This document shows positions 2,294 to 6,491 of a stretch of 6,491 bases of DNA, in pieces (positions within the stretch are counted from its first letter, which is position 1; the number at the start of each line of letters is the position of its first letter). This DNA comes from a virus (Duplodnaviria > Heunggongvirae > Uroviricota > Caudoviricetes), in the IMG/VR virus record IMGVR_UViG_2695420595_000022, positions 1 to 6,491 of that record. One strand, 5' to 3'. The notes beneath the pieces were generated by a model. That model was not told where the DNA came from and did no database searches. It saw nothing but the letters and a program-made list of their open reading frames with translations. A program made the position numbers and the translations under genes.

Positions 2294-2347
2294 GGTAGAT
2301 CTCCCTGACAAAAGCAGGAATGATGCCATTTGCTCGTTATTTCTGCA

Positions 2348-2373
2348 TTTTCATAAACGTTGGTTTGGGAGAA
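2348..2373. other. Invertase crossover site A (pix/gix/cix-like, pin-proximal type)
   Basis: TTTTCATAAACG-TT-GGTTTGGGAGAA: two imperfect 12-bp inverted half-sites around a 2-bp core, resembling the gix/cix/hix consensus. 2323..2374 is a perfect 52-bp reverse-complement match of 6440..6491, and the GGTTTGGGAGAA half-site is shared with site B. Confidence 0.8.
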
Positions 2374-2574
2374 GCGGCAAAACGGGATGTAGGGACAGGG
2401 GAAAATCAGATACCGGACATGGCCTCTTTTGCCAGTGGTGATGGATGGATGAAATTACCCAACGGTAAAATTCTGCAATATGGTCGAGGCGAGGCTATGC
2501 CGAAATTATCGACGCAAACAATGAGGATTACATTTCCTATCCCTTTCCCTAAAAAAGCGGACTGCGCCATTCTT
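2374..2574 (+). pseudogene. Orphan tail-fibre variable C-terminal cassette fragment, truncated at the IS junction
   Basis: Starting at site A the + strand encodes (GLGE)[19 protein letters not shown]...[14 protein letters not shown]...[10 protein letters not shown], parallel to the cassette after site B ([19 protein letters not shown]...[10 protein letters not shown]...TLPFVFPNK), with nucleotide identity over 2362-2384 vs 4510-4532. Similarity ends around 2557-2575, where the opposite strand becomes IS3-family transposase. The track ORF 2320..2655 is a chimera of flank, site, cassette fragment and IS antisense. Confidence 0.6.
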
Positions 2575-3320
2575 ACCCATTCTGTTTTCAGACTGCGGAA
2601 GAAGCGTTCCATGGGGCTGTTATCCCAGCAGTTTCCCCGCCGACTGACGCTTTGATTTATTCTGCAACGCCAGAGAAGTTGTTGATATTTAAGGCCTGTA
2701 TACTGGCTTCCCTGGTCGCTATGGAACACGACATCCCGGGGTTGGCCACGCGTCTCATAGGCCATCCGCAGGGCACTGCTTATCAGTGCGGTATCGGCAT
2801 GCGCTGACAGACTCCAGCCGATAACCCTGCGGGCAAAAAGATCCATAACAACCGCCAGATAGCACCAGCGATTTCCTGCCCAGAGATACGTAATATCTCC
2901 ACACCATACCCGGTCTGGCTCCGGTACTGCGAACTGACGCTCAAGCAGATTCGGCAGGCTGGTATGCTCCTGACGGGCATTTTTATACTGATGTTTTCCG
3001 GGCTGACAACTGCTCAGGTTCAGATATTTCATCAGACGTCCGGCACGGTAACGGCTCATCGGGACGCCGTTTTGAGTCAGCATTTCAGCCAGAGTGCGCG
3101 CGCCCGCAGAGCCCCGACTTTGGTTCCACGCCCGGCGTATTTCGCTGCACAACCTGACTCGTGCCGGATTAACCGTATCGCGTCGTTTTCGCCAGTACCG
3201 GTAACTGCTGCGGTGTATTTCCAGAGCAGAACACAGGCTGACAACCGTGTGGCTGTCACTTAGTCTGGCGGCTATCGTGAACCGTTCAGCGAGTCGGACA
3301 TTAAGAGCGCGGTAGCCTTT
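2406..3320 (-). CDS. IS3-family transposase OrfB (DDE integrase domain), C-terminus replaced by flanking DNA; probably non-functional
   Basis: -1 frame relative to orfA; contains [21 protein letters not shown] and [20 protein letters not shown], matching the IS3-family DDE core. After EWV (~2574) the frame runs on through non-IS, tail-fibre-antisense sequence to a stop at 2406-2408 ([11 protein letters not shown]...), lacking the conserved C-terminal region seen in e.g. IS3 InsF. The track lists only 2406..3152 from an internal TTG. Confidence 0.75.
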
Positions 3321-3583
3321 TTTAATATCGTATTTTGTTCCTCCAGACGGCGAACTTGCTTTTCCAGCTCGCGGATACGTTGCTGGTCTGGAGTAATGGG
3401 TGTGGCAGAGGGCGTAATACCCTGGCGCTCTCGCCTGAGCTGGCGTACCCAGCTCTCAAGCGTGGTTGAACCGACATTCATCGCTTCACTGGCCTGTCGA
3501 TATGAGTAGCCCTTATCAACAATCAGCTGTGCACATTCCAGCCTGAACTCAGGGGTGAAGGTTCGTTTGGTTTTCTTGTTCAT
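3272..3583 (-). CDS. IS3-family transposase OrfA (HTH / leucine-zipper protein)
   Basis: [55 protein letters not shown]...[34 protein letters not shown] is a typical IS911-like OrfA. ATG at 3581-3583 preferred over the GTG at 3617-3619 used by the track; stop TAG at 3272-3274. Confidence 0.9.
3317..3323 (-). other. Programmed -1 ribosomal frameshift heptamer A-AAA-AAG (OrfA to OrfAB)
   Basis: On the minus strand ATT-TTA-AAA-AAG-GCT (I L K K A) puts A AAA AAG in the zero frame near the end of orfA. The -1 frame is open from here ([14 protein letters not shown]...[24 protein letters not shown]...) into orfB, as I verified by hand translation of 3153-3320. Confidence 0.7.
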
Positions 3584-3603
3584 TAAGTCACCTGTTTTGT
3601 GTT

Positions 3604-4215: not shown

Positions 4216-4218
4216 TCC

Positions 4219-4962
4219 ATGCATCGTATAGACACGAAAACCGCGCAGAAGGATAAGTTCGGCGCGGGTAAGAACGGTTTTACCCGTGGTAACCCCCAGA
4301 CCGGCACACCTGCCACCGATCTGGATGATGACTACTTTGACATGTTGCAGGAAGAACTCTGCAGCGTGGTGGAGGCATCCGGTGCCAGCCTGGAGAAGGG
4401 GCGGCATGACCAGCTGCTTACCGCGCTTCGTGCGCTGCTGTTAAGCCGCAAGAATCCGTTTGGCGATATCAAATCTGATGGCACGGTGAAAACGGCTCTC
4501 GAAAACCTTGGTTTGGGAGAAGCGGCAAAACGAAATGTGGGCAACGGGGAAAACCAAATCCCTGATATGTCTTTCTGGACGGTTACTGGTGGCAATGGAA
4601 ATTTTGTGATTCGTCAACCTGACGGGCTAATCATTCAGATGGTTACTGTAAGTATAAGCGGTCCAGTGGCGATGAATGGAATGACTGATAATGCTTATGC
4701 CATTACAGGTTCTAATAAGTCTTATATTGCCACAGCCACATTGCCCTTTGTATTTCCTAATAAGGTGCTGGGCGTTATCCCTCTGGTATCAACAACAGCT
4801 TATGGTGGTGTATCCAGTAATATTACAGGTTCATACGCGACGGCGGTTTGTTCTTTTGCCGCTGTCAGGGGGAATAATACGATTGTGTTCAAAGTCGACA
4901 AACCACTGAATGCAGCCTTTCCTTCAGATACCAGCGTCTCAGCGTTAATCATTGGACGGTAA
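4219..4962 (+). CDS. stf: Tail-fibre protein with constant N-terminal part and invertible variable C-terminal part (currently expressed cassette)
   Basis: ATG at 4219 preceded by GGAG (4209-4212). The constant part ends ...[11 protein letters not shown], encoded across site B; the variable part [19 protein letters not shown]...GLIIQMV...LPFVFPNK... resembles tail-fibre receptor-binding tips. Stop TAA at 4960-4962. Confidence 0.85.
4496..4521. other. Invertase crossover site B (constant-side, pixL-type) inside the tail-fibre gene
   Basis: CTCTCGAAAACC-TT-GGTTTGGGAGAA: same architecture and same core (TT) as site A, with an identical GGTTTGGGAGAA half-site, in direct orientation to A and inverted relative to C. 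Confidence 0.8.
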
Positions 4963-4964
4963 GA

Positions 4965-5408
4965 ATGAACTCAGTATTCTTTTCACCCGCAAGTAAAAGT
5001 TTTTATCTGCAAGAATTGTTTCCAGAATATGAGGATGCGGGAACGCTTCCTGATGATGTTATTGAAATTACCAGAGAAACATATGAGCAATTTCTTGGGC
5101 TGCATCCAGAAGGGAAAGAAATTGGCGCTGACAGTTCAGGACGGCCAATATGGATTAATTCCCCGCCGCCTTCAAAAGAGGATGAGATGCTGGCGGCTGA
5201 AATGAAAAAGATATCTTTGGTTTCAGAAGTCAATACCTACATCAATACCCATCAGTGGCCTGGCAAAGCTGCTATTGGTCGTCTGAAAGGTTACGAGCTG
5301 GAACAATATAATTTATGGCTGGATTATCTGGACGCACTGGAACTGGTTGATACCTCCAGTGCTCCAGATATTGAATGGCCTACGCCTCCGGTAGTTCAGG
5401 CCAGATGA
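4965..5408 (+). CDS. tfa: Tail-fibre assembly protein (chaperone for cassette 1)
   Basis: 147-aa ORF starting 2 nt after the stf stop; C-terminus ...SSAPDIEWPTPPVVQAR has the conserved Tfa C-terminal APD(I/V)xWP motif. Confidence 0.85.
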   Translation: MNSVFFSPASKSFYLQELFPEYEDAGTLPDDVIEITRETYEQFLGLHPEGKEIGADSSGRPIWINSPPPSKEDEMLAAEMKKISLVSEVNTYINTHQWPGKAAIGRLKGYELEQYNLWLDYLDALELVDTSSAPDIEWPTPPVVQAR

Positions 5409-5985
5409 CATCCGGCGCGGTGCTGGTATCTGTTGCAGTCACCGCGTCAATGTAATCCAGCACAGCGTTAAGCCGGGTTGTTTCTGCCTGCGTCAGCTTC
5501 CGCCCGGCCTGCAATTTCAGCTGAATCAGACTAATGGAAGCCATAGCAGCATCAATCAGTGACTGGCGCCGTACTTCTGCCGCGTCTACTGCGGCGTTAT
5601 GCTGTGCCTCAGTATCGGTCACCCATTTCTCACCATCCCATTTATCGTATGACGTTAACGGGGCGATAGTGGTTGTATTTTCAGGGTAATCACCCGGAAC
5701 TGTGATTTCTTTTGATTCTCCTGTTTCGGTGCTATAGACGATTTCACCGCGATGGTCTGGCACATATTCCCATGAGTTAAAATCTGCAGAACGGCAAATT
5801 GCATAACCAGCTTTATATGAGCCAGGAGCATCTAAACAGGAACATGCCGGGATACCAACACCCACAGCAAGATATTCAGTTGATGTGGAAATATATTCCC
5901 GTGTTTCACCATCATAATTATAAACGGTAATGTCTCCGGCCTTTGTGGCGATGAGTTCATTATTTAATACAGCTTTACTTATCAT
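5380..5985 (-). CDS. tfa: Tail-fibre assembly protein (chaperone for cassette 2, inverted)
   Basis: 201-aa ORF on the minus strand; C-terminus ...TSTAPDVIWPELPEA matches the Tfa motif. Its ATG (5983-5985) overlaps the TGA stop of the upstream inverted tail-fibre cassette (ATGA coupling). Confidence 0.85.
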   Translation of the reverse strand: MISKAVLNNELIATKAGDITVYNYDGETREYISTSTEYLAVGVGIPACSCLDAPGSYKAGYAICRSADFNSWEYVPDHRGEIVYSTETGESKEITVPGDYPENTTTIAPLTSYDKWDGEKWVTDTEAQHNAAVDAAEVRRQSLIDAAMASISLIQLKLQAGRKLTQAETTRLNAVLDYIDAVTATDTSTAPDVIWPELPEA

Positions 5986-6491
5986 GCAGCCCTCACAATA
6001 TAATTAAAGGCGATGTTACGGGAGCGGGTTTCAGATGCTGTGCGAACTGAGCGAGATGCGTCGAATGTCCAGTTATAAGCGCCATAACCCTCAATAATTT
6101 CGGCTTCCTTTAGACCTGTAGATAATACTTGCCCATGTTGACTAAATGGCCCTGAACTAAGTACGTCTCTAAAAAGCTGGGTACGCCCAAAAGAACCAAC
6201 AATATTCTGAATTGCATCATTCTGTGCAGATAATAAGTTACGACCAGAGTCAATCCCGCGCCCATCATCCCAGCCACGAATAAATTCACCGCGTAAATCT
6301 GGTAATTTTAATGTTGGGTAAGCCTTTGCCAGATTTGGGTACTTTTCAGAAGAAAATACTGCTCCGTTACATTTTAGCCACCCCGTTGGCGGAGTGGCGG
6401 AAGGCCACGGAACAGGCACACCAACGGGTAATGCCGAACCTTCTCCCAAACCAACGTTTATGAAAATGCAGAAATAACGAGCAAATGGCAT
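5982..6491 (-). CDS. stf: Alternative tail-fibre C-terminal variable cassette (silent, inverted orientation)
   Basis: Translation (MPFARYFCIFINVGLGE)GSALPVGVPVPWPSATPPTGWLKCNGAVFSSEKYPNLAKAYPTLKLPDLRGEFIRGWDDGRGIDSGRNLL... is a typical tail-fibre tip of invertible tail-fibre systems. The first ~8 codons, including the ATG at the window edge, lie outside site C; inversion at B x C would fuse the cassette in frame to the constant part at GLGE. Confidence 0.8.
   Translation of the reverse strand: MPFARYFCIFINVGLGEGSALPVGVPVPWPSATPPTGWLKCNGAVFSSEKYPNLAKAYPTLKLPDLRGEFIRGWDDGRGIDSGRNLLSAQNDAIQNIVGSFGRTQLFRDVLSSGPFSQHGQVLSTGLKEAEIIEGYGAYNWTFDASRSVRTASETRSRNIAFNYIVRAA
6441..6466. other. Invertase crossover site C (pin-proximal type, inverted relative to A and B)
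   Basis: TTCTCCCAAACC-AA-CGTTTATGAAAA is the exact reverse complement of site A. Perfect identity extends over 52 bp (6440..6491 vs 2323..2374) and is limited by the window end. Confidence 0.8.

Follow-up and report, generated by a model that had tools for sequence, protein, structure and literature searches.

Inversion switches of the Din family depend on a recombinational enhancer that is bound by Fis and acts in cis; as a rule it lies within the 5' part of the gene for the invertase. The Gin/Mu G, Cin/P1 C and Hin/Salmonella H segments combine a small serine invertase (about 180-190 aa) with 26-bp imperfect-dyad sites that share a 2-bp core, and in Mu and P1 the C-terminus of the tail fibre is switched. 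The Min system of plasmid p15B extends this scheme to multi-site inversion, with three or more usable C-terminal cassettes and fibre variants.

Inversion has been shown experimentally for the P segment of K-12 e14, which comprises pinE and stfP/tfaP/tfaE/stfE (PMC4272514, PMC12529663), and a P2-like prophage locus of EPEC E2348/69 has three IRs and four variants (PMC4272514). For wild-type Din invertases, intramolecular inversion is the exclusive outcome, and the enhancer acts at kb distance (PMC3798978). The Pin of one prophage can also act on the sites of another, given that PinQ of Qin inverts the e14 P segment (PMC12529663).

The 6,491-nt stretch of viral DNA analysed here, called the window throughout, shares with Mu, P1 and Salmonella the type of invertase and the structure of the sites, and with Mu and P1 the switching of a fibre tip; unlike in those systems, its host element is defective. 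It contains three crossover sites. We consider it probable that two e14/Pin-type (Din invertase) tail-fibre switches from decaying prophages meet head to head in the window. All three recombination sites then belong, as ordinary sites, to one or the other of two known e14-type inversion switches and do not make up a new three-site device, and the third is a by-product of prophage decay, without design.

Gene content of the two modules

The features of the window (L numbers in the text denote related loci) are as follows.

1-1509, + strand: ORF1, a 502-aa reading frame that occupies the cargo position of the ssrA-integrated prophage, distal to pin
1739-2293, - strand: pin1, full-length 184-aa Din-family serine DNA invertase with Ser9
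2323-2374, + strand: left pin-proximal block, ATG plus 17-codon leader MPFARYFCIFINVGLGE; contains site A and forms one arm of inverted repeat I1
2348-2373, + strand: site A, 26-bp crossover site TTTTCATAAACG TT GGTTTGGGAGAA, core TT 2360-2361; pin-proximal, module 1
2375-2574, + strand: gp53-like cassette X stub, the first 200 bp after site A of a 136-aa leader-plus-cassette ORF
2575-2584, no strand: microhomology ACCCATTCTG, a 10-bp overlap that belongs to both cassette X and the IS where the two meet (three-way alignment)
2575-3655, - strand: truncated IS3-family element, 1081 of 1258 bp kept
3643-4215, + strand: ymfQ', Mu Gp48-like baseplate gene (Pfam Phage_Mu_Gp48)
4219-4962, + strand: stf tail-fibre gene, 247 aa, with a constant N-terminal part to about 4507 and a variable P-type C-terminus past site B
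4496-4521, + strand: site B, 26-bp crossover site inside stf, CTCTCGAAAACC TT GGTTTGGGAGAA, core TT 4508-4509
4965-5408, + strand: tfaP-type tail-fibre assembly chaperone, 147 aa (Caudo_TAP in identical genes of L013-L022)
5380-5985, - strand: tfaE-type tail-fibre assembly chaperone, 200-201 aa (Caudo_TAP_N and Caudo_TAP in identical genes)
5982-6491, - strand: silent cassette E, 169 aa, StfE-like, with a Collar domain (Pfam Collar, E 2e-15); read from the pin-proximal leader ATG
6440-6491, - strand: right pin-proximal block, the other arm of I1, cut by the window end
6441-6466, - strand: site C, 26-bp crossover site, + strand core AA 6453-6454; pin-proximal, module 2

Judged by its sequence, the window is a mosaic that combines two dissimilar modules. 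Positions 1-2374 are 100% identical to L003, L005, L006 and L007, the end of an ssrA-integrated prophage with a Mu-like tail, and positions 2575-6491 are 100% identical to L001, a widespread remnant. Module 1 would be the ssrA-proximal end of the Mu-like-tail prophage, in which cargo ORF1 is followed by an intact pin, then site A and then the opening 200 bp of a gp53-like cassette. Module 2 would retain the standard layout: ymfQ', then stf, which contains site B, then tfaP, tfaE, the silent Collar cassette and pin-proximal site C, and the truncated, immobile IS3-family element would join one module to the other. Comparison with relatives bears out the proposal, made in a sequence-only reading of this DNA, that two e14-type switch modules meet head to head, and homology comparisons likewise uphold its view that of the left module only the cargo, pin, site A and a piece of a cassette remain.

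The exact ORF1 protein adjoins ssrA/smpB and pin in many assemblies. It matched no Pfam family, and against PADLOC it gave only a weak LmuA match (E 0.007). The product of pin1 is a small serine recombinase of the Din family, with a resolvase domain (Pfam Resolvase, E 9e-52), a C-terminal HTH (HTH_7, E 3e-14) and the catalytic Ser. Residues 1-183 align with two Gin structures, 3uj3 and 4m6f (E 2e-92), the 3uj3 chain having Ala where pin1 has Ser9, and pin1 is 100% identical to the copies in the same four ssrA-type loci. At the DNA level, pin1 is 90.7% identical to K-12 pinE over 1773-2374, which leads us to expect a Fis enhancer within it. Module 2 most likely has its own pin, starting 30 bp past the window end, as inferred from all relatives: a pin gene starts about 30 bp past the block in L001, L015, L016, L018, L020-L022 and L024-L033, and the L001 sequence resembles the left side of the window for 498 bp at 96.6%, from the block into this second pin. 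Because site C has its own pin in all relatives, the layout is almost certainly pin-A ... B ... C-pin.

The gene order of module 2, ymfQ-stf-tfaP-tfaE-stfE-(pin), is that of the K-12 e14 P segment; stf is 96% identical to K-12 stfP up to site B, and in both loci the leader ATG gives a short ORF on the silent cassette. The exact stf protein is found in the normal modules L013-L022, and its C-terminus has a weak Pfam match to Gp53-like_C. In L001 the tfaE-type gene is annotated tfaE and cassette E 'phage tail protein'. Two alternative fibre tips, Gp53-like_C and Collar, are thus accompanied by two convergent Caudo_TAP genes. Unlike in K-12 e14, the module sits in a Mu-like-tail prophage remnant at ssrA, its variable tips differ, its upstream genes have been cut off by the IS3-family element, and the window has a second pin and an orphan pin-proximal site 2.1 kb upstream of B and direct to it.

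The 5' end of ymfQ' has been replaced by the IS end, such that homology to intact ymfQ starts at 3652, and the tail and baseplate operon upstream of the gene is absent. Since that operon has been lost, no virion depends on the switch. The same IS/ymfQ' joint is present in L001, L016 and L025-L034. The element has the orfA and orfB genes of the IS3 family, a -1 frameshift at A AAA AAG (AAAAAAG at 3317-3323, from which the fused product was reconstructed) and a DDE (rve) transposase, and rve and HTH_Tnp_1 were found on identical genes in L016 and L020. The full-length element (L001, 8824-10081) has 26-nt terminal inverted repeats. The window copy, whose 100% identity to L001 begins at 2575, lacks the 177 bp that carry IRR and the orfB end: IRR is absent because the copy starts 177 bp inside the element, and orfB loses its C-terminus at 2575. 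With one of its two terminal inverted repeats gone, both of which mobility requires, the copy is a dead fragment.

Crossover sites and the inversions they allow

A search for AAACNWWGGTTTGGGAGAA, with up to 3 mismatches allowed, gave no-mismatch matches at 2355-2373 (+), 4503-4521 (+) and 6441-6459 (-), and the pattern also matched the dyad partner of site B at 4496-4514 (-). Four matches compare with 0.03 expected, and none of 200 shuffles reached four. The three sites have identical inner half-sites and cores, the core of each being TT in its own orientation; the reverse complement of C is identical to A. Sites A and B are direct repeats, and C is inverted relative to both, so that B and C form a pair of inverted 26-bp imperfect-dyad sites with the same 2-bp core. 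Comparison with the e14 P region, which the sequence-only reading had proposed, revealed that B has the same 26-bp sequence as the left site of the K-12 segment, and C the same as the right site. The pattern search and an inverted-repeat computation agree with the positions and sequences given earlier for all three sites.

The same computation confirmed the perfect inverted repeat I1, with arms of 52 nt at 2323-2374 and 6440-6491 that are 100% complementary and have 4065 nt between them. This length is a lower bound because the right arm runs up to the end of the window, and the inner ends mark the point at which the two cassettes diverge. A perfect repeat of this kind favours a recent inverted duplication of one switch module, an alternative already raised in the sequence-only reading, but we judge such an event to be the least probable of the explanations weighed here. 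Unrelated loci carry the 52-mer without a single difference, and so does a third of complete E. coli genomes (1768 of 5426); it occurs once per normal locus, always beside pin, and was present once in 14 of the 24 loci fetched. We regard it as a family-wide conserved pin-proximal block that carries no evidence of duplication, and the 52-bp identity therefore loses the special standing once given to it. Furthermore, the left and right modules each match a different prophage lineage at 100%, the cassettes at A and C are unrelated (gp53-like versus Collar), and in relatives the pin beside C shares only 96.6% identity with pin1 and is accompanied by different cargo. Duplication was rejected on the ground that the two halves come from different lineages.

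For a locus composed of two separate switches, the expected chemistry is that of the family. Pin dimers would bind the 26-bp sites and, together with Fis bound to a cis enhancer, would assemble into an invertasome on supercoiled DNA; cleavage at the central TT would be followed by a rotation of 180 degrees, with productive recombination expected only between sites in inverted orientation. Because PinQ acts in trans on e14, either pin could serve all three sites in the window, although the K-12 enzyme and its sites are at distant loci whereas the modules here are adjacent.

Inversion between B and C is the normal switch, as had been predicted. Relatives with 99.8-100% identity carry the segment inverted (L026, L027 and L028) or in the orientation of the window (L025, L029, L030, L032 and L033), with breakpoints inside the 20-bp shared site; the two orientations are seen in relatives only. 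Three 1.9-kb 'plasmid' records correspond to the segment 4520-6442. In simulation, B x C inversion flips this 1.9-kb segment and exchanges the fibre C-terminus between P type (247 aa) and Collar type (253 aa), and the simulated 253-aa and 163-aa ORFs match gene calls in L026-L028. The predicted inversion between A and C is mechanistically allowed and would flip 4.1 kb between two pin genes, after which site B would pair with A in place of C; in the simulation every protein stays as it was, since the sequences outside the two sites are the same. The third predicted event, deletion between A and B, is unlikely given that these sites are direct repeats with a non-palindromic TT core and that the enzymes are inversion-only (PMC3798978).

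Three sites with identical inner half-sites and cores, along with an intact pin, raise the question of whether the locus is a working, shufflon-like multiple-inversion system of the Min/p15B or EPEC P2-like kind, selected for a wider repertoire of fibre tips or short leader-cassette proteins. There is precedent in the EPEC locus with its three IRs and four variants (PMC4272514), and a leader-cassette protein can have an effect by itself, as K-12 StfE2 does in blocking T2 adsorption (PMC12529663). Nevertheless, we hold this to be very improbable. As in EPEC, three sites are available to one invertase family, and nested inversions between inverted sites are predicted to give four isomers, but enumeration of all of them yields only two stf products, of 247 and 253 aa. 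The EPEC locus produces at least three fibre variants from at least three usable C-terminal cassettes, whereas the third site here comes from a second, truncated module, contributes no further fibre variant and probably has a second invertase gene next to it. Of the extra cassette only a 200-bp stub remains, in out-of-frame fusion to the IS, and this stub can never join stf, leaving no more than two C-termini for the constant part, and the upstream tail genes of the module have been lost to the IS. The arrangement is also absent from all 5426 complete E. coli genomes and therefore shows no sign of conservation.

The joint between the modules

Homology to five other ORF1 prophages ends exactly at 2374. 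Beyond this point the cassette X stub is 99.7-100% identical to the cassette X beside pinE and mcrA in the e14 of strain PS1Thumoskin9 (99.7% to e14 cassette X over 2290-2584), and in complete genomes the window allele of this cassette always neighbours pinE and mcrA in e14 proper, never pin1. A 40-mer across the cassette X/IS joint was absent from genome contigs, metagenome contigs and complete E. coli genomes. Linkage of A to B and C is supported by the window and by one draft scaffold, L034, which has an independent head-to-head layout and a full-length cassette X; its halves are joined by a single N, and its joint differs from that of the window.

We infer an origin in two steps. Homologous recombination between two IS3 copies might have occurred in a strain with both prophages, one copy lying at an insertion hot spot past the tfa gene of the cassette (L023 and L024 have an IS3 inserted after tfaX, in either orientation) and the other having already cut off ymfQ. 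Next, about 0.8 kb would have been deleted between direct repeats of 10 bp, taking away what was left of the cassette together with its tfa gene and the end of the IS.

Alternatively, the contig might be chimeric, assembled through the pin-proximal block of at least 72 bp that several prophages share and/or through the multicopy IS, in which case site A would be unlinked to B and C and the real genome would hold ordinary two-site modules at separate loci. The absence of the adjacency from complete genomes and the uniqueness of the cassette/IS joint are consistent with such an artefact, as are the three parts of the mosaic, each 100% identical to separate loci of closed genomes such as PS1Thumoskin9, and the drafts L009, L010 and L011, which break exactly at the pin-proximal block. 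L034, the sole similar assembly, is joined by its scaffold N elsewhere and has a garbled contig end at site C. However, the exact 10-bp overlap looks like the trace of a real short-homology deletion, given that a chance 10-nt suffix-prefix match is improbable for a gap closer. The two assemblies also agree in order and orientation, and in both cassette X faces the IRR side of the IS, whereas the e14 arrangement has tfaX facing the IRL side, so that its read pairs cannot give the IRR-side orientation. On balance we consider a chimera unlikely, though it is the most serious competitor to a true junction of two decaying switches.

A more far-reaching version of that junction, which we find doubtful and less probable than an artefact, is a real nested two-invertase system, pin1-A ... 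B ... C-pin2, whose pin1/cassette X joint arose by Pin-mediated exchange between prophages. If this were true, a 4.1-kb fibre module with its IS would flip between two pin genes, beside the 1.9-kb switch. The exchange partners would be e14 at icd and the ssrA prophage, with the pin1/cassette X joint located exactly at a crossover site. Din invertases would then occasionally rearrange the chromosome between prophages, beyond the inversion of a single switch.

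Crossover sites and gene content of the locus

A repeat search of the window returned a perfect inverted repeat of 52 nt (2323-2374 versus 6440-6491), a length that is a lower bound because the right arm stops at the window's last base. Scanning with the half-site and core pattern yielded three crossover sites and the dyad partner of site B, or four matches versus 0.03 expected by chance. The sequence-only reading was right in describing three sites and a 52-bp inverted repeat. Sites A and B are direct repeats, and site C is inverted relative to both. Base for base, B and C are the left and right sites of the P segment of e14, the cryptic prophage of E. 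coli K-12, where inversion has been demonstrated by experiment (PMC4272514; PMC12529663).

Features of the window, mapped from ORFs, Pfam and annotated relatives, with the crossover sites from the pattern scan
1-1509, + strand: ORF1, 502 aa, without known family
1739-2293, - strand: pin, encoding a full-length Gin-like invertase with Ser9
2323-2374, + strand: leader of 17 codons (MPFARYFCIFINVGLGE), passing through site A
2348-2373, + strand: site A, TTTTCATAAACG-TT-GGTTTGGGAGAA, 26-bp Din-invertase format
2375-2574, + strand: gp53-like cassette X, 200 bp of it
2575-3655, - strand: IS3-family element
to 4215, + strand: ymfQ'
4219-4962, + strand: stf, containing site B
4496-4521, + strand: site B, CTCTCGAAAACC-TT-GGTTTGGGAGAA, 26-bp Din-invertase format
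4965-5408, + strand: tfaP
5380-5985, - strand: tfaE
5982-6491, - strand: Collar-domain cassette, read from a second leader copy through site C
6441-6466, - strand: site C, the reverse complement of A

Searches of Pfam, PADLOC and NCBIfam gave no convincing family for ORF1, the best PADLOC signal being a weak one to LmuA (E 0.007, residues 368-485). In related prophages, the slot distal to pin carries McrA, GmrSD, Avs2, a KAP NTPase or a GIY-YIG protein, and this position suggests that ORF1 may be an uncharacterised defence gene. A D-x13-E-x-K pattern (EIDVIGFRGEAEIKCYECK) towards the C-terminus, read by eye, would resemble PD-(D/E)xK nucleases.

Two prophage lineages head to head

The two halves of the window match separate prophage lineages, which bears out the proposal that a pair of switch modules lies head to head. 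Positions 1-2374 match, at 100% identity in several assemblies, the end nearest ssrA of a prophage with a Mu-like tail, and this identity breaks off exactly at the site; in complete genomes, too, it ends at 2374. The overlapping stretch 2290-2584 has 99.7% identity to the cassette next to pin in e14 proper of strain PS1Thumoskin9, where pinE and mcrA lie beside it. From 2575 to 6491, the window matches at 100% a remnant carried by many strains, in which the order is IS3, ymfQ', stf, tfaP, tfaE, Collar cassette, pin and a different cargo. In this remnant, 30 bp separate the position of the window's end from the pin start codon beyond it, a spacing equal to that on the left (2293-2323), which argues that site C is no orphan but the ordinary pin-proximal site of the right-hand module, its pin apparently lost to the window edge. 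In one such remnant (L001), the similarity between the left and right sides runs on for 498 bp, at 96.6%, into the second pin. We infer that the source strain carries a second pin; the sequence-only reading had overlooked this gene, which is next to C in relatives, as well as the truncation of the IS.

Duplication of a single module had been offered as the alternative to two joined modules, and it fails. The halves come from different lineages with different cargo, and the cassettes flanking A and C are unrelated. Moreover, the exact 52-mer is common, occurring in 1768 of 5426 complete E. coli genomes at up to five places per genome. It was present in 14 of the 24 loci then fetched, as a single copy and always beside pin or the expected place of pin; the version in K-12 e14 shows two differences. 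The 52-mer is a conserved block comprising the start codon, short leader and site, and its wide conservation makes its perfection uninformative on recent duplication. A perfect long inverted repeat by pin should not be taken for one.

Other modules among the relatives are incomplete in their own ways. Two modules that are normal in other respects retain the pin-proximal side (L014 11764-14440 and L019 11779-14464), but a GmrSD type IV restriction gene follows it in place of pin; the exact 52-mer is present in the former and absent from the latter. Such pin-less switches cannot turn unless an invertase acts on them in trans. Another shortened module (L044 7736-10292) has ORF1 and pin1 with only a 236-bp stub of a Collar-type cassette, and adjoins HNH and lysis genes from a different phage region.

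Cassette X (2355-2421) and the P-type tip of stf (4503-4569) have 82% DNA identity over 67 nt starting at the site, a stretch that encodes GLGEAAKR(D/N)VG(T/N)GENQIPDM. Homology between cassettes therefore reaches well past the 26-bp site, and might offer a substrate for homologous as well as site-specific exchange.

Predicted inversion outcomes

In the Din family, invertase dimers at two sites and Fis at a cis enhancer, which is effective across kilobases, build an invertasome on a supercoiled branch, where the enzyme cuts all four strands at the 2-bp core and one pair of subunits turns 180 degrees, with intramolecular inversion as the exclusive outcome (PMC3798978). Enumerating all inversions between oppositely oriented sites gave four isomers. 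The B x C inversion exchanges a fibre of 247 aa with a P-type tip for one of 253 aa with a Collar tip, and shortens the leader ORF at C from 169 aa to 163 aa. The products so predicted equal the genes called in three inverted relatives (L026-L028), which differ from the window solely by this inversion at 99.8-100% identity, and so B x C holds as the normal switch, as originally supposed. The proposed A x C inversion is possible and would flip 4.1 kb, but it is silent, since the identical outer flanks leave all proteins unchanged; following it, the partner of B is A. The stub of cassette X stays in direct orientation to B in every isomer and can never be joined to stf. The A x B deletion that had also been predicted is unlikely, given that these sites are direct repeats with a non-palindromic core, on which wild-type enzymes of the family are not productive (PMC3798978). 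Pin enzymes also work in trans, on sites that belong to other prophages (PMC12529663), and so each pin by itself could act at all sites.

Tail-fibre loci with three sites and four variants are known, for example in a P2-like prophage of EPEC (PMC4272514). There the extra site adds a third usable tip, whereas none is added in the window. The right module is a P region of the e14 type in every respect tested, and the tail genes that it formerly served are gone. The locus is therefore best classed as a composite of two ordinary switches, made by prophage decay, and of a kind already known. One function left to it might reside in the short leader-cassette proteins, by analogy with their K-12 counterpart StfE2, which is reported to block adsorption of phage T2 (PMC12529663).

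The junction and the linkage of the modules

In L001, the IS3-family element is 1258 bp long with terminal inverted repeats of 26 nt. The copy in the window begins 177 bp into the element and is immobile, since it is missing one end and the C-terminus of orfB. The other end meets ymfQ' at the identical base in all remnants, a boundary that represents one ancestral event by which the upstream tail genes were removed. In two other strains, the same element stands directly after tfaX, at the 3' end of the cassette tfa gene, once in each orientation (L023 6893-8113 and L024 6672-7849), which suggests that the region separating the convergent tfa genes in such switches is an insertion hot spot.

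Cassette X and the IS overlap at their joint by 10 bp (ACCCATTCTG, 2575-2584). Similarity searches of complete E. coli genomes, phages and plasmids returned no record with this joint, a 40-mer spanning it had no match in GTDB species representatives or JGI metagenomes, and exact look-up of the chimeric ORFs across it gave no match. An artificial splice was considered in view of two chimeric ORFs that end where intact genes of relatives end (2406 and 2655), and was dismissed when direct alignment revealed unrelated sequence and a chance in-frame stop.

The head-to-head layout recurs in one other assembly, the draft L034 (GCA_001283505.1), in the order smpB, ssrA, ORF1, pin, A, complete X (136 aa) and the first 45 codons of tfaX, then a single N, the IS and ymfQ' to the Collar cassette. 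Its IS resumes at window position 2671, and both sides of the N are 100% identical to the window.

An assembly chimera, in which the modules are not truly adjacent, must still be weighed. Adjacent modules were found in 0 of 5426 complete genomes, L034 is a scaffold joined by an N, and short-read contigs often end at the pin-proximal block (L009, L010 and L011). Furthermore, the exact pin1 protein occurs in single normal modules in all its long-contig contexts, and invertible segments have been reported as circular 1.9-kb 'plasmids'. However, the order and orientation of the modules agree between the window and L034, and in both assemblies cassette X faces the IRR side of the IS, an arrangement that e14 read pairs, with tfaX facing the IRL side, could not give. 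The 10-bp overlap is also the mark that genuine short-homology deletions leave. For a gap-closing artefact, the GapFiller program joins sequences that overlap by at least 10 nt. A chance suffix-prefix match of 10 nt is improbable, and so a deletion is somewhat favoured over such an artefact at the joint. Overall, we regard a chimera as unlikely.

If the modules are indeed linked, we infer that the simplest history has two steps. Homologous recombination would have taken place between two IS3 copies, one lying behind tfaX in the ssrA prophage, the other bordering ymfQ' in an older remnant that shared this attachment site, and would have inverted one module relative to the other. A deletion of ~0.8 kb between 10-bp direct repeats would then have followed in the window's strain.

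Three plasmid records of 1.9 kb from cat E. coli isolates (CP148528.1, NZ_CP148539.1 and NZ_CP148540.1) correspond exactly to the B-C invertible segment (window 4520-6442) at 99.4-99.5% identity, and are almost certainly by-products of assembling the segment in both orientations, not replicons. The L034 contig ends at site C (12797-12865) with a garbled, T-rich core (TTTGTCTTTTTTTTTT instead of CCTTCTCCCAAACCAA), past which the constant part of stf (window 4455-4507) follows as its reverse complement. Such a junction is that of the isoform inverted at B x C, a hint that the culture sequenced contained both orientations. Loci of this kind interrupt or mislead short-read assembly, as is evident among the fetched records from contigs stopping at the site, 1.9-kb pseudo-'plasmids' and N-joined scaffolds.

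Our finding brings no new mechanism. If the linkage is real, the locus would be a natural case of prophage decay and IS rearrangement stacking invertase sites into a multi-isomer locus, in which the additional sites can be silent in function.
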